NCBI RefSeq assembly: GCF_013315695.1 | Contig: NZ_CP054353.1 | DNA length: 64,000 nt | Direction: 5' to 3' (one strand) | From: Escherichia coli | GTDB taxonomy: Bacteria; Pseudomonadota; Gammaproteobacteria; Enterobacterales; Enterobacteriaceae | Shown here: positions 15,994 to 54,827 of the stretch, one piece after another | Numbering within the stretch: the stretch's first letter is position 1 | How the letters are laid out: every line of letters starts with the position of its first letter | The notes under the pieces: model-generated | Seen by the model: the letters and a program-made list of their open reading frames with translations, nothing else | Database searches by the model: none | Told to the model about the DNA's origin: nothing | Position numbers and translations under genes: made by a program

Positions 15994-16002
15994 TGTGGCA
16001 AT
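15994..16002. repeat. left copy of 9-bp IS1 target-site duplication TGTGGCAAT
   Basis: Identical 9-mer directly flanks both IS1 ends (15994..16002 and 16771..16779). Confidence 0.9.
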
Positions 16003-16017
16003 GGTAATGACTCCAAC

Positions 16018-16521
16018 TTATTGATAGTGTTTTATGTTCAGATAATGCCCGATGACTTTGTCATGCAGCTCCACCGATTTTGAGAACGACAGCGACTTCC
16101 GTCCCAGCCGTGCCAGGTGCTGCCTCAGATTCAGGTTATGCCGCTCAATTCGCTGCGTATATCGCTTGCTGATTACGTGCAGCTTTCCCTTCAGGCGGGA
16201 TTCATACAGCGGCCAGCCATCCGTCATCCATATCACCACGTCAAAGGGTGACAGCAGGCTCATAAGACGCCCCAGCGTCGCCATAGTGCGTTCACCGAAT
16301 ACGTGCGCAACAACCGTCTTCCGGAGCCTGTCATACGCGTAAAACAGCCAGCGCTGGCGCGATTTAGCCCCGACATAGCCCCACTGTTCGTCCATTTCCG
16401 CGCAGACGATGACGTCACTGCCCGGCTGTATGCGCGAGGTTACCGACTGCGGCCTGAGTTTTTTAAGTGACGTAAAATCGTGTTGAGGCCAACGCCCATA
16501 ATGCGGGCTGTTGCCCGGCAT
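16018..16521 (-). CDS. insB: IS1 InsB (transposase C-terminal part; expressed as InsAB' by -1 frameshift)
   Basis: 167-aa [56 protein letters not shown]... Confidence 0.93.
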
Positions 16522-16715
16522 CCAACGCCATTCATGGCCATATCAATGATTTTCTGGTGCGTACCGGGTTGAGAAGCGGTGTAAGTGAACTGCAGTTGCC
16601 ATGTTTTACGGCAGTGAGAGCAGAGATAGCGCTGATGTCCGGCGGTGCTTTTGCCGTTACGCACCACCCCGTCAGTAGCTGAACAGGAGGGACAGCTGAT
16701 AGAAACAGAAGCCAC
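16440..16715 (-). CDS. insA: IS1 InsA (transposition repressor / transposase N-terminal part)
   Basis: 91-aa [45 protein letters not shown]... with zinc-finger-like Cys pairs. Confidence 0.93.
16458..16466 (-). promoter_or_regulatory. IS1 programmed -1 ribosomal frameshift site (A6C motif)
   Basis: Plus strand GTTTTTTAA is the reverse complement of TTAAAAAAC in the insA/insB overlap. Confidence 0.7.
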
Positions 16716-16770
16716 TGGAGCACCTCAAAAACACAATCATACACTAAATCAGTAAGTTGGCAGCATCACC

Positions 16771-22121: not shown

Positions 22122-22901
22122 ATGGAAATCAGTCTGTTGCAGGCATTCGCGTTGGGCATTATCGCCTTTATCGCTGGCCTGGATATGTTTAACGGCCTAA
22201 CCCATATGCACCGCCCGGTGGTCCTCGGCCCGTTGGTCGGACTGGTACTTGGCGATCTGCATACCGGTATTTTAACCGGCGGTACGCTGGAACTGGTGTG
22301 GATGGGGCTGGCCCCGCTGGCGGGCGCACAGCCGCCTAACGTGATTATCGGTACTATCGTCGGCACGGCGTTTGCCATTACTACTGGCGTGAAACCCGAT
22401 GTCGCGGTCGGTGTCGCCGTACCTTTCGCTGTCGCAGTACAGATGGGGATTACCTTCCTGTTCTCGGTGATGTCCGGCGTGATGTCCCGCTGCGACCGGA
22501 TGGCGGAGAACGCCGATACACGCGGCATTGAACGCGTGAACTATCTGGCACTGCTGGCACTCGGCACGTTCTATTTTCTCTGCGCTTTCCTGCCTATCTA
22601 CTTCGGCGCAGAACATGCAAAAACCATCATTGATGTCCTGCCGCAACGATTAATCGACGGCCTCGGCGTCGCGGGCGGCATCATGCCAGCAATCGGTTTT
22701 GCCGTGTTGCTGAAAATCATGATGAAAAACGTCTACATCCCCTACTTCATCCTGGGCTTTGTTGCCGCAGCCTGGCTCAAGTTACCGGTGTTGGCTATTG
22801 CTGCCGCTGCGCTGGCGATGGCGCTGATCGACTTGCTGCGTAAATCTCCTGAACCGACTCAACCTGCGGCACAGAAAGAGGAATTTGAAGATGGCATCTA
22901 A
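22122..22901 (+). CDS. agaW: N-acetylgalactosamine PTS EIIC component AgaW, full length
   Basis: 259-aa membrane ORF MEISLLQAFALGIIAFIAGLDMFNG...; K-12 has only a truncated remnant. Confidence 0.88.
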   Translation: MEISLLQAFALGIIAFIAGLDMFNGLTHMHRPVVLGPLVGLVLGDLHTGILTGGTLELVWMGLAPLAGAQPPNVIIGTIVGTAFAITTGVKPDVAVGVAVPFAVAVQMGITFLFSVMSGVMSRCDRMAENADTRGIERVNYLALLALGTFYFLCAFLPIYFGAEHAKTIIDVLPQRLIDGLGVAGGIMPAIGFAVLLKIMMKNVYIPYFILGFVAAAWLKLPVLAIAAAALAMALIDLLRKSPEPTQPAAQKEEFEDGI

Positions 22902-23769
22902 TCAAACTACCCTGCCGAACGTCAGTGAAAACGAAGAAACACTGCTGACTGGCGTCAATGAAAACGTGTATGAAGATCAGAGTATTGGCGCGGAGCTGAC
23001 GAAAAAAGATATCAACCGCGTCGCCTGGCGTTCCATGCTGTTACAAGCGTCTTTTAACTACGAACGTATGCAGGCTTCCGGCTGGTTGTACGGTCTGCTG
23101 CCTGCTCTGAAAAAGATCCACACTAATAAACGCGACCTGGCGCGCGCCATGAAGGGGCATATGGGTTTCTTCAATACCCATCCGTTTCTGGTGACGTTTG
23201 TTATCGGCATTATCCTTGCGATGGAGCGTTCTAAGCAGGACGTTAACAGTATTCAGAGCACCAAAATTGCCGTCGGTGCGCCGCTCGGCGGGATTGGCGA
23301 TGCGATGTTCTGGCTAACGCTACTGCCGATTTGTGGCGGGATAGGCGCAAGCCTCGCGCTACAAAGCTCTATTCTTGGCGCAGTCGTCTTTATTGTGCTG
23401 TTCAACGTGGCGCATCTCGGTTTGCGTTTTGGTCTTGCACATTATGCTTACCGCATGGGCGTGGCGGCGATTCCACTCATTAAAGCAAATACCAAAAAAG
23501 TCGGCCATGCGGCATCTATCGTTGGGATGACGGTAATCGGCGCGCTGGTGGCAACCTATGTTCGTTTAAGCACCACGCTGGAAATCACAGCGGGCGACGC
23601 AGTGGTTAAGTTACAGGCTGATGTTATCGACAAACTGATGCCTGCCTTCTTACCACTGGTCTACACCCTGACCATGTTCTGGCTGGTACGCCGCGGCTGG
23701 AGTCCGCTGCGCCTGATTGCGATTACCGTGGTTCTCGGCATCGTCGGTAAATTCTGCCATTTCCTTTAA
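22885..23769 (+). CDS. agaE: N-acetylgalactosamine PTS EIID component AgaE
   Basis: 294-aa membrane ORF, mannose-family IID; overlaps agaW stop; absent from K-12. Confidence 0.85.
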   Translation: MKMASNQTTLPNVSENEETLLTGVNENVYEDQSIGAELTKKDINRVAWRSMLLQASFNYERMQASGWLYGLLPALKKIHTNKRDLARAMKGHMGFFNTHPFLVTFVIGIILAMERSKQDVNSIQSTKIAVGAPLGGIGDAMFWLTLLPICGGIGASLALQSSILGAVVFIVLFNVAHLGLRFGLAHYAYRMGVAAIPLIKANTKKVGHAASIVGMTVIGALVATYVRLSTTLEITAGDAVVKLQADVIDKLMPAFLPLVYTLTMFWLVRRGWSPLRLIAITVVLGIVGKFCHFL

Positions 23770-23786
23770 ATACAATGAGGTATTAG

Positions 23787-24221
23787 ATGTTAAGTATTAT
23801 TTTGACAGGGCATGGCGGATTTGCCAGCGGCATGGAAAAAGCAATGAAGCAAATTCTCGGTGAGCAATCGCAGTTTATCGCCATCGATTTTCCGGAAACC
23901 TCAAGCACCGCGCTGCTTACATCGCAGCTTGAAGAGGCCATCGTCCAACTGGATTGTGAAGACGGCATTGTTTTTCTGACGGATTTGCTGGGCGGCACGC
24001 CGTTTCGCGTAGCTTCAACGCTGGCGATGCAAAAACCGGGCTGTGAAGTGATCACCGGCACCAATTTGCAACTGCTACTGGAGATGGTGCTGGAGCGCGA
24101 AGGGTTAAGCGGTGAAGAGTTCCGTGTGCAGGCGCTGGAGTGTGGACACCGTGGGCTGACCAGTCTGGTGGACGAGTTAGGCCGCTGCCATGAAGAATGT
24201 CCGGTCGAGGAAGGAATATGA
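23787..24221 (+). CDS. agaF: PTS EIIA component AgaF
   Basis: 144-aa ORF MLSIILTGHGGFASGMEKAMKQILGEQ..., mannose-family IIA with His in TGHGGFA context. Confidence 0.85.
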   Translation: MLSIILTGHGGFASGMEKAMKQILGEQSQFIAIDFPETSSTALLTSQLEEAIVQLDCEDGIVFLTDLLGGTPFRVASTLAMQKPGCEVITGTNLQLLLEMVLEREGLSGEEFRVQALECGHRGLTSLVDELGRCHEECPVEEGI

Positions 24222-25351
24222 CACACGTTCTGCGCGCCAGAAGGCTGCTGACTGAAGAGGGATGGCTCGATGACCATCAGTTGCGTATTGCTGACGGTGT
24301 AATCGCAGCAATCGAACCGATTCCAGTGGGCGTGACTGAACGCGATGCGGAACTGCTCTGCCCCGCTTACATCGACACCCATGTACACGGTGGTGCGGGC
24401 GTTGATGTAATGGATGACGCGCCGGATGCGCTCGACAAGCTGGCAATGCACAAGGCACGCGAAGGTGTCGGCAGTTGGTTACCGACCACCGTAACCGCGC
24501 CGCTTAATACCATTCATGCGGCGCTGAAACGTATTGCTCTACGCTGCCAGCGTGGCGGACCTGGTGCGCAAGTGCTGGGGAGTTATCTCGAAGGACCGTA
24601 CTTCACGCCGCAGAATAAAGGCGCGCATCCGCCGGAGCTGTTTCGCGAGCTGGAAATTGCCGAGCTGGATCAATTGATTGCCGTTTCTCAGCACACCTTG
24701 CGCGTGGTAGCGCTGGCACCAGAAAAAGAAGGGGCATTGCAGGCCATCCGCCATCTTAAACAGCAAAACGTACGGGTGATGCTGGGGCATAGCGCGGCGA
24801 CCTGGCAACAAACCCGTGCCGCGTTTGACGCTGGTGCCGACGGCCTGGTGCATTGCTATAACGGGATGACAGGTTTACATCACCGCGAACCGGGAATGGT
24901 TGGCGCGGGATTAACGGACAAGCGCGCCTGGCTGGAACTGATAGCCGATGGTCATCATGTACATCCGGCGGCGATGTCGCTGTGTTGTTGCTGTGCGAAA
25001 GAGAGAATCGTGCTGATCACCGACGCGATGCAGGCAGCCGGGATGCCGGATGGTCGCTATACGTTATGTGGTGAAGAAGTGCAGATGCACGATGGCGTTG
25101 TCCGTACCGCGTCCGGTGGGCTGGCGGGCAGTACGCTGTCTGTCGATGCGGCAGTGCGCAACATGGTCGAGTTGACGGGCGTAACGCCTGCGGAAGCCAT
25201 CCATATGGCATCGCTGCATCCGGCGCGTATGCTGGGTGTTGATGGTGTTCTGGGATCGCTTAAACCGGGCAAACGCGCCAGCGTCGTTGCGCTGGATAGC
25301 GGGCTGCATGTGCAACAAATCTGGATTCAGGGTCAATTAGCTTCGTTTTGA
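24218..25351 (+). CDS. agaA: N-acetylgalactosamine-6-phosphate deacetylase AgaA, full length
   Basis: ORF 24197..25351; start taken at MTHVLRARRLLTEEGW; NagA-like amidohydrolase with HxH motif (DTHVHGGAG). Confidence 0.88.
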   Translation: MTHVLRARRLLTEEGWLDDHQLRIADGVIAAIEPIPVGVTERDAELLCPAYIDTHVHGGAGVDVMDDAPDALDKLAMHKAREGVGSWLPTTVTAPLNTIHAALKRIALRCQRGGPGAQVLGSYLEGPYFTPQNKGAHPPELFRELEIAELDQLIAVSQHTLRVVALAPEKEGALQAIRHLKQQNVRVMLGHSAATWQQTRAAFDAGADGLVHCYNGMTGLHHREPGMVGAGLTDKRAWLELIADGHHVHPAAMSLCCCCAKERIVLITDAMQAAGMPDGRYTLCGEEVQMHDGVVRTASGGLAGSTLSVDAAVRNMVELTGVTPAEAIHMASLHPARMLGVDGVLGSLKPGKRASVVALDSGLHVQQIWIQGQLASF

Positions 25352-25369: not shown

Positions 25370-25402
25370 GGCCTTCACTTCCCCCGTAAGGCCTTTTTTT
25401 TT
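25370..25402 (+). terminator. possible rho-independent terminator after agaA
   Basis: GGCCTT ... AAGGCC inverted repeat followed by T9 run. Confidence 0.45.
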
Positions 25403-25577
25403 CTTTCTTTTTGATCTGTGCAGCGGTGTCGGATGCGACGCTGACGCGTCTTCTTCGACCTACGGTACGCCGCATCCGGCAATCGGTGAACATAGCGACG
25501 TTATCACGCAATCCTTTAATCTTCCCTTGTCTTTTCTTTCAATGATCACAAATTTCGTTTTATTTCTTTTTTCTCCA

Positions 25578-27729: not shown

Positions 27730-27880
27730 TCATTAGTTTTTTATGATTTATCCCAATGTACTTCCCGATTAATATCGGGGAGTGCCTTAATGGAAAAGGA
27801 GATAACTAAACCTTAATAAATACATCAGTAAAATATCGCAACAATAATATATTTTAAAAAATTATGGTAATGACTCCAAC

Positions 27881-28384
27881 TTATTGATAGTGTTTTATGT
27901 TCAGATAATGCCCGATGACTTTGTCATGCAGCTCCACCGATTTTGAGAACGACAGCGACTTCCGTCCCAGCCGTGCCAGGTGCTGCCTCAGATTCAGGTT
28001 ATGCCGCTCAATTCGCTGCGTATATCGCTTGCTGATTACGTGCAGCTTTCCCTTCAGGCGGGATTCATACAGCGGCCAGCCATCCGTCATCCATATCACC
28101 ACGTCAAAGGGTGACAGCAGGCTCATAAGACGCCCCAGCGTCGCCATAGTGCGTTCACCGAATACGTGCGCAACAACCGTCTTCCGGAGCCTGTCATACG
28201 CGTAAAACAGCCAGCGCTGGCGCGATTTAGCCCCGACATAGCCCCACTGTTCGTCCATTTCCGCGCAGACGATGACGTCACTGCCCGGCTGTATGCGCGA
28301 GGTTACCGACTGCGGCCTGAGTTTTTTAAGTGACGTAAAATCGTGTTGAGGCCAACGCCCATAATGCGGGCTGTTGCCCGGCAT
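27881..28384 (-). CDS. insB: IS1 InsB
   Basis: 167-aa ORF identical to copy 1 InsB. Confidence 0.93.
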
Positions 28385-28578
28385 CCAACGCCATTCATGG
28401 CCATATCAATGATTTTCTGGTGCGTACCGGGTTGAGAAGCGGTGTAAGTGAACTGCAGTTGCCATGTTTTACGGCAGTGAGAGCAGAGATAGCGCTGATG
28501 TCCGGCGGTGCTTTTGCCGTTACGCACCACCCCGTCAGTAACTGAACAGGAGGGACAGCTGATAGAAACAGAAGCCAC
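28303..28578 (-). CDS. insA: IS1 InsA
   Basis: 91-aa ORF; differs from copy 1 at one residue (CSVTDG vs CSATDG). Confidence 0.93.
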
Positions 28579-28633
28579 TGGAGCACCTCAAAAACACCAT
28601 CATACACTAAATCAGTAAGTTGGCAGCATCACC

Positions 28634-28844
28634 ACAAACGGTACGTAAATTGGTAGAAGGTGGTATTGACCTGAAAGATGTCAACGTCGGCAATATGCAT
28701 TTCTCGGAAGGGAAAAAGCAAATCAGCAGTAAAGTTTATGTCGATGACCAGGATCTCGCGGACTTACGTTTTATTAAACAACGTGGCGTGAATGTTTTCA
28801 TTCAGGACGTCCCTGGCGATCAAAAAGAACAAATCCCTGACTAA
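28634..28844 (+). pseudogene. agaB: agaB (galactosamine PTS EIIB), 5-prime truncated; only about the C-terminal 69 codons remain
   Basis: Frame ...QTVRKLVEGGIDLKDVNVGNMHFSEGKKQISSKVYVDDQDLADLRFIKQRGVNVFIQDVPGDQKEQIPD matches the AgaB C-terminus and begins directly at the IS1 end. Confidence 0.85.
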
Positions 28845-30467: not shown

Positions 30468-31235
30468 ATGGAACGAGGCACTGCGTCTGGCGGTGCCTCT
30501 TTACTTAAGGAATTTCATCCTGTGCAAACCCTTCAACAAGTTGAAAACTATACGGCGTTAAGTGAACGTGCCAGCGAATATTTATTGGCCGTGATCCGTA
30601 GCAAACCGGATGCCGTGATTTGCCTGGCGACCGGAGCCACGCCATTACTGACGTATCATTATTTGGTAGAAAAAATCCACCAGCAGCAGGTTGATGTCAG
30701 CCAGCTTACCTTCGTGAAGCTCGACGAATGGGTGGATCTGCCATTAACGATGCCTGGTACCTGCGAAACTTTCCTACAACAGCATATCGTGCAGCCGCTG
30801 GGGCTGCGTGAAGACCAGCTCATCAGCTTTCGCTCTGAAGAGATAAATGAGACAGAGTGCGAACGGGTAACGAACCTGATTGCGCGCAAAGGCGGTCTGG
30901 ATTTATGCGTTCTCGGATTGGGGAAAAACGGTCATCTTGGGCTGAACGAACCGGGAGAAAACCTGCAACCGGCCTGCCATATCAGTCAACTTGATGCCAG
31001 AACACAGCAACATGAGATGTTAAAAACCGCGGGCCGTCCTGTGACTCGTGGGATCACCTTAGGCCTGAAGGATATTCTCAATGCCCGCGAAGTTTTGTTA
31101 CTGGTGACTGGCGAAGGAAAGCAGGATGCGACAGAACGTTTTCTCACGGCTAAAGTCTCTACCGCTATCCCGGCTTCGTTTTTATGGCTGCATAACTATT
31201 TCACATGCATGATTGATGAGATGTGTCGTCGTTAA
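30468..31235 (+). CDS. agaI: putative galactosamine-6-phosphate deaminase/isomerase AgaI (NagB-like)
   Basis: 255-aa ORF MERGTASGGASLLKEFHPVQTLQQVENY... Confidence 0.88.
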   Translation: MERGTASGGASLLKEFHPVQTLQQVENYTALSERASEYLLAVIRSKPDAVICLATGATPLLTYHYLVEKIHQQQVDVSQLTFVKLDEWVDLPLTMPGTCETFLQQHIVQPLGLREDQLISFRSEEINETECERVTNLIARKGGLDLCVLGLGKNGHLGLNEPGENLQPACHISQLDARTQQHEMLKTAGRPVTRGITLGLKDILNAREVLLLVTGEGKQDATERFLTAKVSTAIPASFLWLHNYFTCMIDEMCRR

Positions 31236-31284
31236 CTCGCCTGCTACAGGCGTTGTAGCGCTATTCCTGCTGCAACGCCTGTAA

Positions 31285-32148
31285 TCACTCCCCCTGCTGC
31301 TCCAGCGCATACTTATACAGCGCGTTTTTTTTCACGCCGTGAATCTCTGCCGCCAGCGCCGCCGCTTTCTTCAGCGGAAGCTCAGCCTGTAACAACGCCA
31401 GCGTGCGCAGGGCATCGGCGGGTAAGTCTTCTTCCTGTGCTTTATGGCCTCCGACAATCAGTACCATTTCGCCTTTGCGACGGTTTTCATCTTCTTTGAC
31501 CCACGCCAGCAGCTCGCCAACGGGCGCGCCGTGAATGGTTTCCCAGGTTTTGGTCAGCTCACGCGCCAGAACGACGTAGCGGGATTCGCCTAATACCGCA
31601 ACGATATCTTCCAGGCTATCTAACAGACGGTGGGTAGATTCATAAAAAATCAGCGTGCGCGGCTCCGCTTCAATGGCTTTTAGCGCATCACGGCGGCCTT
31701 TTGATTTGGCAGGTAAAAAGCCTTCATAACAAAAACGATCGGATGGTAAACCCGCGGCGCTTAACGCAGTGATAGCAGCACACGGCCCGGGTAGCGGCAC
31801 CACGCGAATCCCCGCTTCACGGCAGGTACGCACCAGATGGTAGCCAGGATCGTTAATTAGCGGCGTTCCGGCATCGGAAACCAGCGCAATGTTTTGCCCC
31901 TCTTGCAGCTTCGCCAGCAGCGTTTCGGCTTTTTGTTGTTCGTTATGGTCGTGCAGCGCAAACAACCGAGCATTAATCCCAAAATGTTGCAGCAATAAAC
32001 CGGTGTGACGCGTATCCTCGGCGGCAATCAGATCAACGGCCTGTAATACCTCCAACGCACGCTGGGTGATATCCGCCAGATTGCCGATTGGCGTCGGTAC
32101 AATGTAAAGCTGGCCCTGAGAATTATCCGCCGATTGGTGTTGTTTCAT
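31285..32148 (-). CDS. rsmI: 16S rRNA C1402 2'-O-methyltransferase RsmI (YraL)
   Basis: 287-aa [38 protein letters not shown]... Confidence 0.92.
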
Positions 32149-35221: not shown

Positions 35222-35797
35222 ATGAAGGCATTATCGCCAATCGCAGCCCTTCTTTCCGCGCTGCTGTTGCAAGGTTGTGTTGCCGCTGCCGTAGTGGGTA
35301 CCGCTGCTGTGGGTACCAAAGCCGCAACGGACCCACGCAGTGTCGGCACCCAGGTAGACGATGGTACCCTGGAAGTGCGCGTGAACAGCGCATTGTCGAA
35401 AGACGAACAAATTAAGAAAGAAGCGCGCATTAATGTAACGGCCTATCAGGGCAAAGTGCTGTTGGTTGGGCAGTCACCAAACTCTGAACTTTCGGCTCGC
35501 GCTAAACAAATTGCGATGGGCGTAGACGGTGCCAACGAAGTGTATAACGAGATTCGTCAGGGCCAGCCGATTGGTCTGGGCGAAGCGTCTAACGATACGT
35601 GGATCACCACCAAAGTGCGTTCGCAGCTCTTAACCAGCGACCTGGTGAAATCGTCCAACGTGAAAGTGACCACCGAAAACGGTGAAGTGTTCCTGATGGG
35701 GCTGGTGACTGAACGTGAAGCGAAAGCGGCGGCAGATATTGCCAGCCGGGTGAGCGGCGTAAAGCGTGTAACTACGGCGTTTACGTTTATTAAATAG
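35222..35797 (+). CDS. dolP: dual-BON-domain outer-membrane lipoprotein DolP (YraP)
   Basis: 191-aa ORF MKALSPIAALLSALLLQGCVAAAVVG... (lipobox). Confidence 0.9.
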   Translation: MKALSPIAALLSALLLQGCVAAAVVGTAAVGTKAATDPRSVGTQVDDGTLEVRVNSALSKDEQIKKEARINVTAYQGKVLLVGQSPNSELSARAKQIAMGVDGANEVYNEIRQGQPIGLGEASNDTWITTKVRSQLLTSDLVKSSNVKVTTENGEVFLMGLVTEREAKAAADIASRVSGVKRVTTAFTFIK

Positions 35798-35905
35798 CAG
35801 CCCTTGTAATGCCTGATGCGACGCTTGCAGCGTCTTATCAGGCCTACAACGATGCAAACCGTAGGTCGGATAAGGCGTTTACGCCGCATCCGACATGTTT
35901 TCCCT
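35798..35905. repeat. REP/BIME palindromic unit cluster
   Basis: GCCTGATGCGACGCTTGCAGCGTCTTATCAGGCCTAC and GTAGGTCGGATAAGGCGTTTACGCCGCATCCGACA motifs. Confidence 0.75.
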
Positions 35906-35909
35906 CAAA

Positions 35910-36950
35910 TCAAGCCAACAGCGCCAACCCGCCGACAATCACACCAGACACTGCCACCATCGCCCCTGTCAGCCATAAGGCTTTCGCCGGGAACGCTTTG
36001 CGCAGCATAATCAGTGACGGCAAACTCACCGCCGGGAGCGTCATCAACAATGCCAGCGCCGGAGCAGTTCCCATACCTGCCAGCATCATCGTTTGTACAA
36101 TCGGAATTTCTGCTGCCGTGGGAATGACAAACAAGCATCCTGCCACCGCCATCGCCACCACCCACATCAGGCTGTTATCGACAGCACCATCGGCATGGGG
36201 GAATAGCCAGACGCGAGCGGCACCCAACACCAGTACTGCAAGGATGTAAACCGGGATCGTACTCCAGAAAAGCGTCCATAGCGCCCTGCCCCAGCGGCTA
36301 AAAAATCCTCCCTGTGCTTCCGGTATGTCAATTTCGACCGGTGCCTGCGTTTGCGGTGTTTCACGCACCCATTTTTGCACCAGCGTCGCAATCAGCAACA
36401 CCATCACCAGCCCCGCCACCAGACGAATCGCCGCAAAACCCCAGCCGAGGACGAACCCCATAAACACCAGCGTCGCCGGGTTTAACAACGGATTCCCCAT
36501 CCAGAATGCCAGCGCACCGCCCATCGACACCTGTTGGCGACGCATTCCCGCCGCGACCGGAGCCGCACAGCAGGTACACATCATGCCCGGCAGCGAAAAC
36601 AGCGTTCCCAGCAGCGTGCCGCGAAAGCGCGATTGCCCAAGCGTACGCAATAACCAGTCACGCGGGATCAGCACCTGAATCAACGACCCGAGCAGTACGC
36701 CCAGCACCGCCGCTTTCCATACCGCGAGGAAATAGATCATCGCGTAATCCAACGCCGCCTGCCACGGATTAGCATCCGCCTGCGCAAGGATAGATTTACC
36801 GATACTGTGGGTTTCGGCAGCAGTAAACGCTTTGCCGTAGTAAGGTTGCCATTTCACATACCAGAGACCGGCAATGACAACGAGAAAGAAAAGCGCGGGT
36901 TTCCACCACTGAATGGGCGTTGCCGCCTGAGATGAAGACTGACCAGTCAT
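35910..36950 (-). CDS. yraQ: putative permease YraQ
   Basis: 346-aa multi-pass membrane ORF. Confidence 0.85.
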   Translation of the reverse strand: MTGQSSSQAATPIQWWKPALFFLVVIAGLWYVKWQPYYGKAFTAAETHSIGKSILAQADANPWQAALDYAMIYFLAVWKAAVLGVLLGSLIQVLIPRDWLLRTLGQSRFRGTLLGTLFSLPGMMCTCCAAPVAAGMRRQQVSMGGALAFWMGNPLLNPATLVFMGFVLGWGFAAIRLVAGLVMVLLIATLVQKWVRETPQTQAPVEIDIPEAQGGFFSRWGRALWTLFWSTIPVYILAVLVLGAARVWLFPHADGAVDNSLMWVVAMAVAGCLFVIPTAAEIPIVQTMMLAGMGTAPALALLMTLPAVSLPSLIMLRKAFPAKALWLTGAMVAVSGVIVGGLALLA

Positions 36951-42259: not shown

Positions 42260-43267
42260 ATGACTGATAAAACCATTGCGTTTTCGCTACTCGATCTGGC
42301 CCCCATCCCCGAAGGCTCTTCAGCGCGAGAAGCGTTCTCCCACTCTCTCGATCTCGCCCGTCTGGCTGAAAAGCACGGCTATCATCGCTACTGGCTGGCA
42401 GAACACCACAATATGACCGGTATTGCCAGTGCTGCAACATCAGTTTTGATTGGCTATCTGGCAGCGAATACCACCACACTGCATCTGGGGTCTGGCGGCG
42501 TGATGTTGCCTAACCACTCACCGTTGGTGATCGCCGAACAATTCGGCACGCTCAATACGCTCTATCCGGGGCGAATCGATTTGGGGCTGGGTCGTGCACC
42601 GGGTAGCGATCAGCGAACCATGATGGCGCTGCGTCGTCATATGAGCGGCGATATTGATAATTTCCCCCGCGATGTCGCGGAACTGGTGGACTGGTTTGAC
42701 GCCCGCGATCCCAATCCGCATGTGCGCCCGGTACCAGGCTATGGCGAGAAAATCCCCGTGTGGTTGTTAGGCTCCAGCCTTTACAGCGCGCAACTGGCGG
42801 CGCAGCTTGGTCTGCCGTTTGCGTTTGCCTCACACTTCGCGCCGGATATGTTGTTCCAGGCGCTGCATCTTTATCGCAGCAACTTCAAACCGTCGGCACG
42901 GTTGGAGAAACCGTATGCGATGGTGTGCATCAATATTATCGCCGCCGACAGCAACCGCGACGCTGAATTTCTGTTTACCTCGATGCAGCAAGCCTTTGTG
43001 AAGCTGCGCCGTGGCGAAACCGGGCAACTGCCGCCGCCGATTCAAAATATGGATCAGTTCTGGTCACCGTCCGAGCAGTATGGCGTGCAGCAGGCGCTGA
43101 GTATGTCGCTGGTGGGTGATAAAGCGAAAGTGCGTCATGGTTTGCAGTCGATCCTGCGCGAAACCGACGCCGATGAGATTATGGTTAACGGGCAGATTTT
43201 CGACCACCAGGCGCGCCTGCATTCGTTTGAGCTGGTGATGGATGTGAAGGAAGAATTATTGGGGTAG
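42260..43267 (+). CDS. yhbW: luciferase-like monooxygenase family protein YhbW
   Basis: 335-aa [53 protein letters not shown]... Confidence 0.88.
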
Positions 43268-43269
43268 TG

Positions 43270-43385
43270 TGTTTTAACGTAGGAAGCCTTATCCGAGATG
43301 GCAACGCTGTCCTACACAATGCCTGATAAGCGAAGCGCATCAGGCATTGTGTAGGCAGCAGAAATGTCGGATAAGGCACCGCTGA
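43270..43385. repeat. REP/BIME palindromic element
   Basis: CCTTATCCGAGATGGCAAC...CAATGCCTGATAAGCGAAGCGCATCAGGCATTG...GTCGGATAAGGC inverted repeats. Confidence 0.7.
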
Positions 43386-44630
43386 TTACTGATACACCGG
43401 CAGCAAATTAAAGCTCGATAAAATATGCACCAGTGCGTTGCCAACGCCAAACACCAGAATCAGCGCAATCATCGGCTTGCCGCCCCAGACGCGGAATTTC
43501 GGGCTGCCAAAGCGTTTACGCGATGCGCGGGCCAACAGCGCCGGTACAATTGCCGCCCAGATAGTAGCTGCTAAGCCAGCATAACCAATGGCGTACAGGA
43601 ATCCATTCGGGAACAGCAGACCACCCACGACAGGCGGGGCAAAGGTCAACAATGCTGTTTTCAAGCGGCCCATAGCCGAGTCATCGAAACCAAACAGATC
43701 TGCCAGATAGTCAAACAAACCCAGCGTTACGCCAAGGAACGAACTCGCTACCGCAAAGTTTGAGAACACGACCAGCAGAAGATCCAGGCTACGGCTGTTC
43801 AGCACGCCGCTTAACGCCTGTACCAGCACATCAATATTACCGCCCTTCTCGGCGATGCCGATAAACTCCGGACGAGGGATGTTGCCCATCGTCGCCAGCA
43901 ACCAGATGGTATACAGCGCCAGCGCCATCAGCGTACCGTACACCAGGCATTTCACGATGGTTTTCGGATCTTTGCCGTAATACTTCATCAGGCTCGGCAC
44001 GTTACCGTGATAACCAAACGATGCCAGACAGAATGGCAGTGTCATCAGCAGATACGGCGCATAAGACGCATTGCTTTCGGCGACGTTGAACAATGTCGCA
44101 GGCTGTACATGCCCCAGTAGGCTACCGAAGGTGAGGAAGAAGGTAATGACTTTCGCACCCAGCACAATCGCCGTCATGCGGCTGACCGCTTTGGTGCTCA
44201 ACCACACCACAAACGCCACCAGCAGTGCAAAACCAAAACCCGCTGCCCGTGCCGGGACGTTCAATGACATCTCTGCGAAGGTATGATGCAGAATCGAACC
44301 GCTGGCAGAAATATAGGCATAGGTCAGGATATAGAGCACAAAGGCAATGGAAATGCCGTTGACCACGTTCCAGCCTTTGCCCAGCAAATCTTTGGTGATG
44401 GTGTCAAAGCTCGAACCGATTCGGTAATTCAGGTTAGCTTCCAGAATCATCAAGCCGGAATGCAGCATACAGAACCAGGTAAAGATCAGCGCCGCCATTG
44501 ACCAGAAGAACCACGCCCCGGACATGACCACTGGCAGAGAAAACATCCCTGCGCCAATAATGGTGCCGCCGATAATCACCACGCCGCCAAGCAGCGACGG
44601 TGACGTTTGGGTGGTGGTTAGTGTTGCCAT
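43386..44630 (-). CDS. mtr: tryptophan-specific permease Mtr
   Basis: 414-aa membrane [38 protein letters not shown]... Confidence 0.92.
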
Positions 44631-50645: not shown

Positions 50646-51590
50646 TTACGCCGGGTATTCAACCACCAGGCGACGAGGCGCGACGCGGCCTTCATCGTCA
50701 ATTTCGCCCATACCGATAAACTTGCCGTTCTCACCTTCTGTAACGCGAACCAGTCCTTCCAGCGGCGCACCGGATGTACGAACCGGGTTACCATTTTTGA
50801 AGTAAACAGAAGACGTTAACGGAAGATTCACCACCGGGTAGTCCGAAGCTGGACTGTCCATTGGCATCAGTAATGGATCAAGTAACTCCGCGGCTGGAAT
50901 ATCCTGCTGTTCGGCTTGTTCAACCAGTTCACGCAGATGTTCCAGGGTCACCATCCGTTCAACCGGATATTTACTTACCGCCAGACGACGCAGGTAAATA
51001 ACATGCGCGCCACAACCGAGTTTTTCGCCGAGATCGTCAATGATAGTGCGGATATAGGTGCCTTTTGAGCAGTGAATTTCCAGCTCCAGCTCATTGCCTT
51101 CATGGCGAATAAACAGCAATTCATAAACGGTAATCGGGCGCGCTTCACGCGGAACTTCAATGCCCTGACGCGCGTATTCGTACAGTTTTTTGCCCTGATA
51201 TTTCAGTGCTGAATACATCGAAGGGATCTGTTCGATATCGCCACGGAAGGTATCCAGCGCCGCCGCCAGTTGCTCTGCACTAAAGGTTACCGGACGTTCT
51301 TCAACGATTTGTCCGTCGGCATCAGAAGTATCGGTACGCTGTCCAAGACGCGCAATGACCCGATAGCGTTTGTCGGAGTCCAGCAGATACTGGGAAAACT
51401 TCGTCGCTTCCCCGAGGCAAATTGGCAACATGCCGGTCGCCAGCGGGTCCAGCGCACCGGTATGCCCGGCACGGTTGGCGTTATAAATCCGTTTCACTTT
51501 TTGCAGTGCATCGTTGCTGGACATCCCCTGCGGTTTATCCAGCAACAAAACGCCGTTAATGTCGCGACCGCGACGACGAGGACGACTCAT
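50646..51590 (-). CDS. truB: tRNA pseudouridine-55 synthase TruB
   Basis: 314-aa [37 protein letters not shown]... Confidence 0.95.
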
Positions 51591-51991
51591 TAGTCCTCCT
51601 TGCTGTCGTCCGGGTTAACACGACGTTCTTCGTCATGTTTGACCACGCTGGTCACCAGGTTTGACATGCGCATCCCTTCAACCAGAGAGTTGTCGTAGAA
51701 GAAGGTCAGTTCCGGCACGATACGCAGGCGCATCGCTTTCCCCAGCAGGCTGCGGATGAAACCAGAAGCTTCCTGCAACGCTTTGATGCCCGCTTTAACC
51801 GCGTCTTCATCTTTGTCGTTGAGGAACGTCACATATACTTTGGCATACGCCAGGTCGCGAGACATTTCGACACCGGAAACGGTGGTCATCATGCCCAGAC
51901 GAGGATCTTTAATTTCACGCTGCAGGATGAGAGCGATCTCTTTTTGCATTTCCTGCGCTACGCGCTGCGGGCGACCAAATTCTTTCGCCAT
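51590..51991 (-). CDS. rbfA: ribosome-binding factor A
   Basis: ORF 51590..52009; start taken at [20 protein letters not shown] (133 aa). Confidence 0.93.
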
Positions 51992-52059
51992 AATAAATTC
52001 TCCTGACAAAAAAGGGGCTGTTAGCCCCTTTTTAAAATTAATTTCAGGTGGAAGGGCTG

Positions 52060-52140
52060 TTCACGTTGGCCTGATAAGACGCGCCAGCGTCGCATCAGGC
52101 AATCCATGCCGGATGCGGCGTAAACGCCTTATCCCGCATG
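52060..52140. repeat. REP palindromic element between infB and rbfA
   Basis: GCCTGATAAGACGCGCCAGCGTCGCATCAGGC and GCCGGATGCGGCGTAAACGCCTTATCC motifs. Confidence 0.7.
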
Positions 52141-52154
52141 GAACCCTAAAAACC

Positions 52155-54827
52155 TTAAGCGATGGTACGTTGGATTTCGATGATTTCGAATACTTCGATC
52201 ACATCGCCAGTGCGGACATCGTTGTAGTTCTTAACGCCGATACCACATTCCATACCGTTACGGACTTCGTTAACGTCATCTTTGAAGCGGCGCAGGGACT
52301 CCAGCTCGCCTTCGTAGATAACCACGTTGTCGCGCAGAACGCGGATCGGGTTGTGACGTTTAACCACACCTTCGGTAACCATACAGCCTGCGATGGCACC
52401 AAATTTCGGCGATTTGAACACGTCACGAACTTCCGCCAGACCGATAATCTGCTGTTTCAGTTCCGGAGACAGCATACCGCTCATTGCCGCTTTCACTTCG
52501 TCGATCAGGTTATAGATGACGGAGTAGTAACGCAGATCCAGGCTTTCCGCTTCAATTACTTTACGTGCAGAGGCATCAGCACGTACGTTGAAGCCAACCA
52601 GGATGGCGTTGGACGCCGCAGCCAGGGTAGCGTCGGTTTCGGTGATACCACCTACGCCAGAACCGATGATCTTCACTTTAACTTCGTCAGTAGACAGTTT
52701 CAGCAAGGAGTCGGAGATAGCTTCCACAGAACCCTGTACGTCTGCCTTCAGGACGATATTCACTTCGTGAACTTCGCCTTCGGTCATGTTGGCGAACATG
52801 TTCTCGAGTTTAGATTTCTGCTGACGCGCCAGTTTAACTTCGCGGAATTTACCCTGACGATAGAGTGCAACTTCACGCGCTTTCTTCTCGTCACGTACAA
52901 CGGTAACTTCATCACCCGCAGCCGGAACGCCGGACAGGCCGAGGATTTCCACCGGAATGGACGGACCCGCTTCCAGCACTTCCTGACCCAGTTCGTTACG
53001 CATCGCACGAACACGACCGTATTCGAAGCCACACAGAACGATATCGCCCTTGTGCAGAGTACCTTCACGTACCAGAACGGTAGCAACCGGACCACGACCT
53101 TTATCGAGGAAGGATTCGATAACCGCACCGCTCGCCATGCCTTTACGTACCGCTTTCAGTTCCAGAACTTCCGCCTGCAGCAGGATAGCGTCCAGCAGCT
53201 CATCGATACCAGTACCCGCTTTCGCAGACACATGTACGAACTGGCTTTCACCGCCCCACTCTTCCGGCAGGATGCCGTACTGGGAGAGTTCGTTCTTAAC
53301 GCGATCCGGATCGGCTTCTGGTTTATCGATCTTGTTCACTGCAACGACCACCGGAACCTGCGCCGCTTTCGCGTGCTGGATTGCTTCGATGGTCTGCGGC
53401 ATTACGCCGTCGTCGGCAGCAACAACCAGGACTACGATGTCCGTTGCCTGCGCACCACGAGCACGCATTGAAGTAAACGCGGCGTGCCCCGGGGTGTCCA
53501 GGAAGGTGATCATGCCGTTTTCAGTTTCAACGTGGTATGCACCAATGTGCTGAGTAATGCCGCCCGCTTCGCCAGAGGCCACTTTCGTTGAACGAATGTA
53601 GTCCAGCAGAGAGGTTTTACCGTGGTCAACGTGTCCCATGATGGTCACAACCGGCGCGCGCGGTTCAGCCGCTGCACCCGTGTCACGGTCGCTCATTACC
53701 GCCTCTTCCAGCTCGTTTTCACGACGCAGGATAACTTTGTGGCCCATCTCTTCAGCAACCAGCTGTGCGGTTTCCTGATCGATAACCTGGTTGATGGTTG
53801 CCATTGCGCCCAGTTTCATCATCGCTTTGATGACCTGAGAGCCTTTAACCGCCATCTTGTTCGCCAGTTCGCCAACGGTGATGGTTTCACCGATCACAAC
53901 GTCACGGTTAACGGCCTGAGCAGGCTTCTGGAAGCCTTGCTGCAGCGAAGAACCTTTACGTTTTCCGCCTTTACCGCCACGTACTGCTGCGCGTGCTTCT
54001 TCACGATCAGCTTTTGATTCAGCGTGTTTGTTGCCTTTCTTCGGACGCGCAGCTTTCGCGTTACGACCACGGCCACGGCCGCCCTCGACTTCACGATCGC
54101 TTTCGTCTTCTGCCTGGCGAGCATGTTGAGAAGTAGTGACGTGATAATCGCTGGAATCTTCAGTCGGTTCCGCGTTATCAGTCCATTTGTTTTCTTCCGC
54201 CATACGACGTGCTTCTTCAGCAACGCGACGTGCTTCTTCTTCGAGTTTACGACGCGCTTCTTCTTCGGCTTTACGCTTGAGCTCTGCAGCTTCCTGCTCA
54301 CGGCGGGCTTTTTCAGCCTGGGCGTTTTTAGTCATATCGTCTTGTTGATTGCTCACTTTGTCTTTTTCCGCAGCTTCACGTTTCGCTTGTTCAGCAGCTT
54401 CACGCTTAGCTTGTTCTGCGGCCTCACGTTCAGCTTTTTGTTGCGCCTCGCGTTTAGCCGATTCTTCTGCCTCACGACGGGCTTGCTCTTCCGCTTCACG
54501 CTGCGCTTGCTCTTCCGCTGCAAGGCGTTCAGCCTCTTGCGGATCGCGTTTCACAAAGGTGCGTTTCTTGCGGACTTCGATTTGTACCGATTTGCTTTTT
54601 CCACCGGTACCAGGAATGTTAAGGGTGCTGCGTGTTTTACGTTGCAGCGTCAATTTGTCCGGGCCTGAATTTTTCTGATTCAGGTGGTCAATCAAAGTCT
54701 GTTTCTCTTGCGCAGACACAGAGTCGTCAGCAGACTTCCGGATACCTGCATCAGCAAATTGCTGTACCAGGCGTTCCACGGAGGTCTGTCGCTCTGCGGC
54801 CAGCGTTTTAATCGTTACATCTGTCAT
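52155..54827 (-). CDS. infB: translation initiation factor IF-2
   Basis: 890-aa [35 protein letters not shown]...; GTPase G-domain ([12 protein letters not shown]). Confidence 0.96.

Follow-up and report, generated by a model that had tools for sequence, protein, structure and literature searches.

Repetitive extragenic palindromes of types y, z1 and z2 at four intergenic sites of an Escherichia coli chromosomal window

The window analysed here is a stretch of 64,000 nt of an Escherichia coli chromosome (NCBI RefSeq assembly GCF_013315695.1, contig NZ_CP054353.1), which runs from tdcG to ftsH and is equivalent to about 3.27-3.32 Mb of the K-12 chromosome. Over the 2 kb around its dolP/yraQ site, several clinical isolates show 100% identity, and most of 5,426 complete genomes show 95-99%. 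Gene boundaries come from the near-identical isolate AF3, whose PGAP annotation was transferred by BLAST, with a direct check of the relevant start and stop codons. An initial annotation had placed GC-rich palindromes in four named intergenic spacers; all four palindromes are present at the coordinates given for them, and the transferred annotation together with the codon check confirms the names of the flanking genes. Site S1 takes up the entire 112-nt spacer between dolP (end at 35797) and yraQ (minus strand, end at 35910), and site S2 is the 118-nt spacer between yhbW (end at 43267) and mtr (minus strand, end at 43386), the genes being convergent in both cases. Site S3 lies within the 163-nt spacer between infB (minus strand, 52155-54827) and rbfA (minus strand, 51590-51991), which belong to a single operon, and site S4 within the 350-nt spacer between the end of agaA (25351) and the start of agaS (25702), both on the plus strand. 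Relative to the annotated coding sequences the units of S1-S4 are all extragenic. Two sites fall between convergent and two between tandem genes, which fits the reported distribution of repetitive extragenic palindromes (REPs), about 60% at convergent and about 40% at tandem gene pairs.

The K-12 RefSeq annotation table holds no named REP features across the corresponding region, so the units were classified from sequence, by alignment to the type sequences of y, z1 and z2 given by Durrant et al. 2024 (PMC11208160). The units and the neighbouring signals are the following:

25370-25402, plus strand: terminator-like hairpin, GGCCTT..AAGGCC followed by T9, after agaA and upstream of S4 (direct reading)
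25427-25463, minus strand: S4a, decayed z2/y-hybrid REP GTAGGTCGAAGAAGACGCGTCAGCGTCGCATCCGACA, 30/37 identical, core E = 8.8e-5, GTAG kept
25468-25481, plus strand: S4b, 3' half of a y REP, 14 nt, CGCCGCATCCGGCA, 100% identical to y positions 21-35, 4 nt past S4a
35810-35847, minus strand: S1a, z2-type REP, 36/37 identical to z2, blastn-short E = 3.8e-10, reading GTAGGCCTGATAAGACGCTGCAAGCGTCGCATCAGGCA on the minus strand
35837-35847, plus strand: IS621 bridge-RNA target ATCAGGCCTAC, exact (0 mismatches), inside S1a
35848-35860, no strand: S1 linker, AACGATGCAAACC, 13 nt, separating the CTAC foot from the GTAG foot, which face each other (direct reading)
35861-35895, plus strand: S1b, y-type REP, GTAGGTCGGATAAGGCGTTTACGCCGCATCCGACA, 33/35 identical to y, E = 5.4e-9, hairpin in the fold
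43286-43296, plus strand: S2 outer left arm GCCTTATCCGA, y-like 11-mer, pairing with 43367-43377 in the fold
43311-43355, no strand: S2 extended palindrome CCTACACAATGCCTGAT..ATCAGGCATTGTGTAGG, 45 nt, perfect except for an AA bulge, rare allele
43321-43346, plus strand: S2c, core z1-type body GCCTGATAAGCGAAGCGCATCAGGCA, 26/30 identical to z1, E = 6.8e-8, at least 40 places per genome
43367-43377, plus strand: S2 outer right arm TCGGATAAGGC, y-like 11-mer (consensus scan and fold)
52008-52028, minus strand: terminator t3, GGGGCU-AAC-AGCCCC followed by U6, a strong structure cluster given for context and not a REP (direct reading)
52065-52101, plus strand: S3a, z2-type REP, 36/37 identical to z2, 100% over positions 4-37, E = 6e-15, foot GTTG instead of GTAG
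52102-52106, no strand: S3 linker, 5 nt, ATCCA, joining the foot-distal ends of the units (direct reading)
52107-52141, minus strand (mRNA sense): S3b, y-type REP, 31/35 identical to y, foot decayed to CCAT, one stem mismatch

By definition, E. coli REPs are imperfect palindromes of 30-40 nt (y 35 nt, z1 29 nt, z2 37 nt) that carry GTAG on the 5' side, conserve an AA/GC mismatch and mostly occur in pairs, the BIMEs (Ton-Hoang et al. 2012, PMC3333891; Corneloup et al.). In the consensus search the best units of S1-S3 were identical to their type sequences at between 26/30 and 36/37 positions, and blastn-short alignment of full-length units to the y, z1 and z2 consensus gave E values from 7e-8 to 6e-15. 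The characteristic irregularity of the stem, a GAT-AA-G arm opposite a C-GC-ATC arm, is found in S1a, S1b, S3a, S3b and S4a, and the stem of S2c has an AA bulge. The GTAG foot is kept in S1a, S1b and S4a; it reads GTTG in S3a, CCAT in S3b and ACAA in S2c, and the units without GTAG are best read as mutated members of the REP family. Each unit folds as its own hairpin. Against shuffled sequence the spacers of S1-S3 form significant hairpins (z from -4.5 to -9.5), whereas the fold of S4 is not significant (z of -1.3 and -1.1). The units are also repeated elsewhere: of the 5426 complete E. coli genomes compared, 5425 match the 112-bp S1 spacer and the 34-bp z1 core each at no fewer than 40 places per genome, and the S3 query has a median of 12 megablast places per genome.

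Both motifs quoted by the initial annotation are literally present, GCCTGATGCGACG at 35811-35823 and, on the minus strand, at 52088-52100, and GCCGGATGCGGCG at 52108-52120 and, on the minus strand, at 25468-25480. The degenerate motif GCCKGATGCGRCG, with at most one mismatch allowed, matches the window seven times against 0.56 expected, a number reached by none of 100 shuffles, and six of these matches fall in the four sites. The seventh, GCCGGATGCAGCG at 25212-25224, lies inside the agaA coding sequence without a partner arm or palindrome and was put down to chance. Weak consensus matches at 5950, 25273 and elsewhere are short and intragenic, and a z2-like 20-mer in both IS1 copies (16262-16281 and 28125-28144) is without complementary outer arms; these were not accepted as REPs. 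Across the whole window the consensus scan finds no REP site beyond S1-S4, so that the sites first described as several are in fact all.

That the elements are REPs is practically certain, and the best overall explanation of the four sites is that y, z1 and z2 units of the ordinary E. coli REP family occupy them (probability about 0.9). Such elements, ordinary REPs and BIMEs, are already known. The matches to y, z1 and z2, the extragenic position, the high copy number, the AA/GC irregularity and, at S3, a match to Rfam family RF02564 agree with what the initial annotation had claimed. Its second label, BIME, holds in part. Taken strictly, as a REP plus an inverted REP, it fits only the pairs at dolP-yraQ and infB-rbfA, and does not fit the single unit at yhbW-mtr or the remnant at agaA-agaS. 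Two classes of BIME have been described, BIME-1 with z1 and y units and a long L linker that carries an IHF site, and BIME-2 with z2 and y units joined by short linkers in tandem arrays (Ton-Hoang et al., PMC3333891; Corneloup et al.).

At dolP-yraQ, S1a has its GTAG foot and AA/GC mismatch intact and forms a separate hairpin in the folds of both strands. S1b likewise retains GTAG and the AA/GC irregularity, and the two positions at which it differs from the y consensus, T6 and A33, are mutually complementary, so that the stem pair is preserved. The spacer folds into two independent hairpins (z = -5.3 on the plus strand and -4.5 on the minus strand), and the distances from the stop codons of the two genes to the REPs are 12 and 14 nt. 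S1 is present in essentially all genomes, 5412 of them with at least 80% coverage. The exact copy of ATCAGGCCTAC inside S1a is the only one in the whole window and corresponds to a natural target of IS621 (PMC11208160). No copy of IS621 itself occurs in the window. Judged by its motifs, S1 has all the cis features of a TnpA-REP substrate; the RAYT gene (yafM region) is located outside the window. In the account given in the literature, REPs would have been seeded as hairpins of single-stranded DNA that the REP-associated tyrosine transposase (TnpA-REP/RAYT) recognises and would afterwards have been retained or have decayed in place, and REP-seeking elements, TnpA-REP and IS621 among them, would still target intact units as DNA.

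At infB-rbfA the transcribed strand is the minus strand, on which S3a appears as an inverted copy. The feet of this pair point outward, whereas those of S1 face each other. The pair lies 13 nt past the infB stop codon and folds into two independent hairpins (z of -6.4 on the transcribed minus strand and -5.0 on the other), and it differs from the IS621 target at one position (ATCAGGCCAAC). On the minus strand, that of the mRNA, positions 52068-52138 match Rfam RF02564 (naRNA4) with 77.2 bits against a gathering threshold of 59.5; the S1 pair, with the opposite geometry, reaches 32-38 bits and stays below that threshold. The Rfam model is built on one y-z2 pair of REP325. Because the model is essentially a REP pair, the match at S3 reflects REP identity and not function. 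The same spacer holds a terminator of its own, t3, which in the mRNA follows the BIME at a distance of 28 nt as counted from the A/T-extended hairpin at 52008-52036; the A/T pairs that lengthen its stem kept a simple terminator scan from detecting it. This terminator has been reported before; transcripts end partly there, and the ratio of infB to rbfA mRNA is about 2:1 (PMC6511841).

The yhbW-mtr site is differently built. The foot of its z1 unit is replaced by ACAAT at 43316-43320, and the left flank at 43276-43316 was tested and is single-copy in each genome, so that only the central unit is a dispersed repeat. S2 is a single z1 unit within a locus-specific nested palindrome, its REP portion being only 43321-43346. 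The spacer forms one long compound hairpin (-62.8 and -60.7 kcal/mol on the two strands, z = -9.5 and -9.4). A BIME-1 assignment was considered for S2 and rejected: S2 has no L linker and no match to the IHF consensus WATCARNNNNTTR (an IHF consensus is missing from the other three spacers as well), its y parts are fragments of 11 nt, and the tested left flank is single-copy.

S2 is also a hotspot of change, the match being split or below 80% query coverage in 588 genomes. Strain 09-00049 carries IS621 exactly within the z1 REP at the CT core, ATCAGGT[CT]-IS621-[CT]ACGTAGG, and strain JNE151685 has two extra genes between yhbW and mtr. Among uninterrupted alleles, the z1 REP of strains 4/0 and Z0117 is perfect, with GTAGG (CGTAGGCCTGAT), K-12 has CATAGACC, and the window and HM670 share CACAATGCC. 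This last, ACAATG allele is found in at most 268 of 4813 genomes. It differs from CGTAG-GCC by three substitutions and one inserted base within five adjacent positions, and all the changes complement the opposite flank ATTGT, lengthening the stem to the 45-nt palindrome listed above; the IS621 target is gone (ATCAGGCATTG). This pattern suggests that the allele may have been derived from a canonical z1 REP by hairpin-templated (quasi-palindrome) mutation, with loss of the TnpA-REP foot and of the IS621 target, an origin to which we give nearly even odds. The E. coli TnpA-REP does not tolerate any mutation of GTAG, and GTAG is lost in both units of S3 and in the S2 allele of the window; therefore these two sites are probably immobile fossils.

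The agaA-agaS site, located 74 nt past agaA, is decayed. The outer stem of S4a has two mismatches, and S4b is only half a unit. The site is dimorphic: about half of the genomes (2806) are of the window type, and the others, including K-12 and CFT073, have a complete second unit. Comparison by inversion, permutation and alignment yielded no convincing derivation of the window-type right half from the K-12 type (7/24 by eye). Lying behind the terminator-like hairpin, the S4 remnant is probably inert and is probably seldom transcribed.

The weight of these sites among all intergenic structures was assessed by a survey of 5,570 nt of intergenic DNA, folded on both strands in 50-nt segments; structures at or below -18 kcal/mol were kept and were assigned to classes by reading. 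Twenty strong clusters were obtained. Eight are intrinsic terminators (rnpB, deaD/mtr, pnp, rpsO, t3, metY, leuU and ftsH), four are the REP sites, one is a known RNA (the pnp leader/sraG region), and six or seven are other hairpins (tdcG-tdcF, garK-garR, garP-garD, yhaV-agaR, the kbaY 3' end, agaI-rsmI and nlpI-deaD). With -33.1 and -29.8 kcal/mol, two of the sites S1-S3 provide the most stable segments of the survey; the remaining one of the three is fifth, at -25.7 kcal/mol. REPs had been credited with most of the non-coding structure not due to terminators. This is borne out by strength but not by count, as they make up 4 of the 12 strong non-terminator clusters, about a third.

If the REPs have a role, they would act mainly as RNA, being transcribed in a 3' UTR or intercistronic spacer and folding into one or two stable imperfect hairpins. 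Transcripts of dolP/yraQ and yhbW/mtr would probably traverse the REP and be ended by Rho a few hundred nucleotides beyond it; 3'-to-5' exonucleases would then trim them back to the REP hairpin, which would set and protect the mature 3' end and damp readthrough. The S3 pair would probably protect the infB mRNA and add to the partial drop in transcription into rbfA. Several published observations bear on this scheme. Resistance of REP hairpins to exonucleases has been described, and the hairpins mark where Rho-terminated transcripts have been trimmed (PMC6061677). REP325 brings about partial Rho-dependent termination and also stabilises the mRNA upstream of it, and for convergent genes a REP in between correlates with raised expression of the two. 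According to Liang et al. 2015, as summarised in PMC12306157, a REP no more than 15 nt from a stop codon stalls terminating ribosomes, and the stop-to-REP distances at S1 (both genes) and S3 are within this range. The Rho-termination regions that Adams et al. 2021 (supplementary file 2) list for K-12 include 3297309(+), which is antisense to yraQ and has a Rho score of 8.5 (p = 2e-17), and 3305003(+), which is antisense to mtr and has a score of 3.7. In K-12 coordinates the first lies 212 nt past the S1 spacer and the second 431 nt past the S2 spacer, positions mapped coarsely in 800-nt windows, and this is the pattern expected if the dolP and yhbW transcripts pass the REP and are then ended by Rho and trimmed. 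The supplements of the same study were searched for 3' ends by coordinate prefix and gene name, and no curated Term-seq 3' end was found within any of the four K-12 sites (Adams et al. 2021). Genome-wide, the half-life of REP-containing genes is not significantly different, and reporter insertions sometimes fail to stabilise. S2 and S4 also differ from strain to strain, as weakly constrained DNA would, and the fold of S4 is not significant. With no Term-seq ends, a coarse Rho map and no significant half-life effect, a role as 3'-UTR hairpins is, in our analysis, therefore only slightly favoured for S1-S3, and for S4 it is less likely still.

A competing view is that the sites are selfish or neutral relics, REPs left behind by the spread of TnpA-REP/RAYT and tolerated in the gaps at gene 3' ends without any use to the host. 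The loss of GTAG in S2, S3a and S3b, which TnpA-REP would not tolerate, speaks in its favour, as do the decay and dimorphism of S4 and the polymorphism of S2, where other strains have received an IS621 or a gene island. The lack of Term-seq ends inside the four K-12 sites and of a uniform genome-wide effect on half-life point the same way. However, S3 persists despite its immobility in 5422 of 5426 genomes, at an identity of 36/37; S1b shows a compensatory change of a stem pair; S1-S3 are far more stable than shuffled sequence; and REP325 has measured effects on its neighbours. On this balance the relic view is rather unlikely.

Clearly less probable is that the sites work as DNA, as BIME-2-type gyrase targets or BIME-1 IHF sites, and organise supercoiling where transcription units end. 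S1 and S3 do have the z2 plus y composition of BIME-2, cleavage of BIME-2 by gyrase is cited in the literature, and convergent transcription at S1 and S2 would be expected to produce positive supercoils. Against this, S1 and S3 are single pairs instead of the tandem arrays typical of BIME-2, an IHF consensus is missing from all four spacers, and S2 is without the L linker.

It is very improbable that the palindromes are intrinsic (Rho-independent) terminators of the flanking genes. Stable GC-rich hairpins directly past stop codons do invite such a reading, a few REPs are known to coincide with terminators of this kind, and 3 nt past S1b comes UGUUUUCCC, which offers a weak UGUUUU. Yet by consensus scan and direct reading, hairpin-plus-U-tract terminators are found neither in the S1 and S2 spacers nor in the S3 REP units; for S1-S3 the reading is rejected because no U-tract follows the hairpins of S1a, S2 and S3. 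The Rho-dependent readthrough regions downstream of S1 and S2, and the separate t3 of the infB-rbfA spacer, argue against it as well. Least probable of all is that S3 encodes an naRNA4-type nucleoid-associated RNA that with HU would link REP cruciforms and compact the chromosome, since the RF02564 match on the transcribed strand and the y-then-inverted-z2 order common to S3 and naRNA4 are offset by a model that is essentially a REP pair, by the low bit score of the S1 pair, and by a 2026 preprint in which REP325/naRNA4 had no measurable effect on nucleoid compaction and REP-REP contacts were not seen.

Beyond correct annotation the importance of these sites is small. The REP/BIME label keeps them from being taken as terminators, small-RNA genes or novel regulatory structures, the Rfam naRNA4 match in the infB-rbfA spacer being an example of its use. 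It also marks dolP-yraQ as a ready target of IS621 and TnpA-REP and explains the differences between strains in the yhbW-mtr and agaA-agaS spacers. S2 can serve as a naturally occurring case in which an allele that perfects the palindrome erases the signals for REP mobility and for insertion. If such 'perfecting' by template switching is general, it could render REPs immobile and immune to REP-seeking insertion sequences. The allele and its relation to IS621 are only a mildly novel by-product of the analysis.

Among known systems, the naRNA4/REP325 unit resembles S3 in that the mRNA strand of S3 reads as a y REP, a linker and an inverted z2, above the gathering threshold of the family. S3 differs in a linker 6 nt shorter in the model alignment and in being a single unit in the nusA-infB-rbfA operon, followed by an intrinsic terminator. 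BIME-1 (RIB/RIP) elements share with S2 a z1 unit with y-like stretches on both sides, here 11-mers; S2 departs from them in having only these y fragments, no L linker or IHF consensus, and a tested left flank that is locus-specific. The likeness to BIME-2 is closer, as in both S1 and S3 a z2 unit is combined with an inversely oriented y unit, across linkers of 13 and 5 nt. BIME-2 elements are typically tandem multiples, such as REP325 with 12 units, whereas only one pair was found at S1 and one at S3, without further tandem copies. IS621, a bridge-RNA recombinase element of the IS110 family, has its exact target in S1 and occupies the z1 REP of S2 in strain 09-00049. Unlike the intact y, z1 and z2 palindromic units (Stern, Gilson, Bachellier), three of the six full-length units have lost GTAG, one is decayed (30/37), and a further element is a 14-nt half. 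With those palindromic units S1-S3 nevertheless share near-identical sequence, an imperfect palindrome of 30-38 nt and the AA/GC irregularity, and likewise an extragenic location at gene 3' ends in tens of copies or more per genome.

The REP (repetitive extragenic palindrome) site between yhbW and mtr, which carries a z1 unit, varies in structure among other E. coli genomes. In strain 09-00049, an isolate from lettuce, IS621, a REP-targeting element of the IS110 family with a bridge-RNA recombinase, is located exactly within this z1 REP, at the CT core. In JNE151685 the short REP spacer is replaced by a gene of the L,D-transpeptidase family and a hypothetical gene, both lying between yhbW and mtr. 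The positions of these insertions, together with those of a z2-like stretch in the window, are as follows.

L004 (strain 09-00049) 2675-4070: IS621, corresponding to window 43311-43330
L005 (JNE151685) 4296-5704: extra genes between yhbW and mtr, corresponding to window ~43268-43385
Window 16262-16281 and 28125-28144: z2-like 20-nt stretch, one per IS1 copy

Across the 751 bp of window 42950-43700, which cover yhbW-mtr, 3900 of 5424 genomes are just 90-95% identical to the window, whereas the surroundings of dolP show 95-99% identity. The divergence at yhbW-mtr is unusually high and suggests that the locus has recombined or exists as distinct haplotypes.

Two copies of IS1 are found in the window. 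The first (16002-16770) is missing at the same place from AF3, an otherwise near-identical isolate, and is inserted about 76 bp inside garD (galactarate dehydratase), so that garD is disrupted in the window's strain. The second (27870-28638) lies between kbaY and agaB; AF3 and K-12 have about 298 bp beside this position that the window lacks, the 5' end of agaB among them, and agaB therefore appears to be truncated. Both copies contain the 20-nt stretch ATAAGACGCcCCAGCGTCGC, with 95% identity to the interior of the z2 REP, and about 27 of 33 positions (counted by eye) match over the whole z2 body. This likeness is probably due to chance, as the outer arms of the stretch are without complementarity.

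Hairpins are also encountered in two other spacers. The yraH-yraK fimbrial operon, 5.5 kb in K-12, is missing from the window, and in its place stand 98 bp between agaI and rsmI (31193-31290) with a 16-bp perfect hairpin, ACAGGCGTTGTAGCGC..GCTGCAACGCCTGT (-27 kcal/mol). It is no REP, and it lacks a U-tract. The garK-garR spacer (12445-12494) possesses the hairpin GGCCTGGATTCCAGGCC, with CTTATTCGGCC upstream, which bears a faint likeness to a REP tail and matches none of the REP consensus sequences.

At the agaA-agaS REP site the right half (25463-25520) is swapped relative to K-12 with equal length: the net loss of 29 nt, comprising the linker and the y left arm, is offset by an unrelated 29-nt sequence with GCAATC repeats on its flanks. 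Upstream, agaW, agaE, agaF and agaA (22122-25351) are all intact in the window, whereas in K-12 a deletion has left agaW and agaA as pseudogenes.
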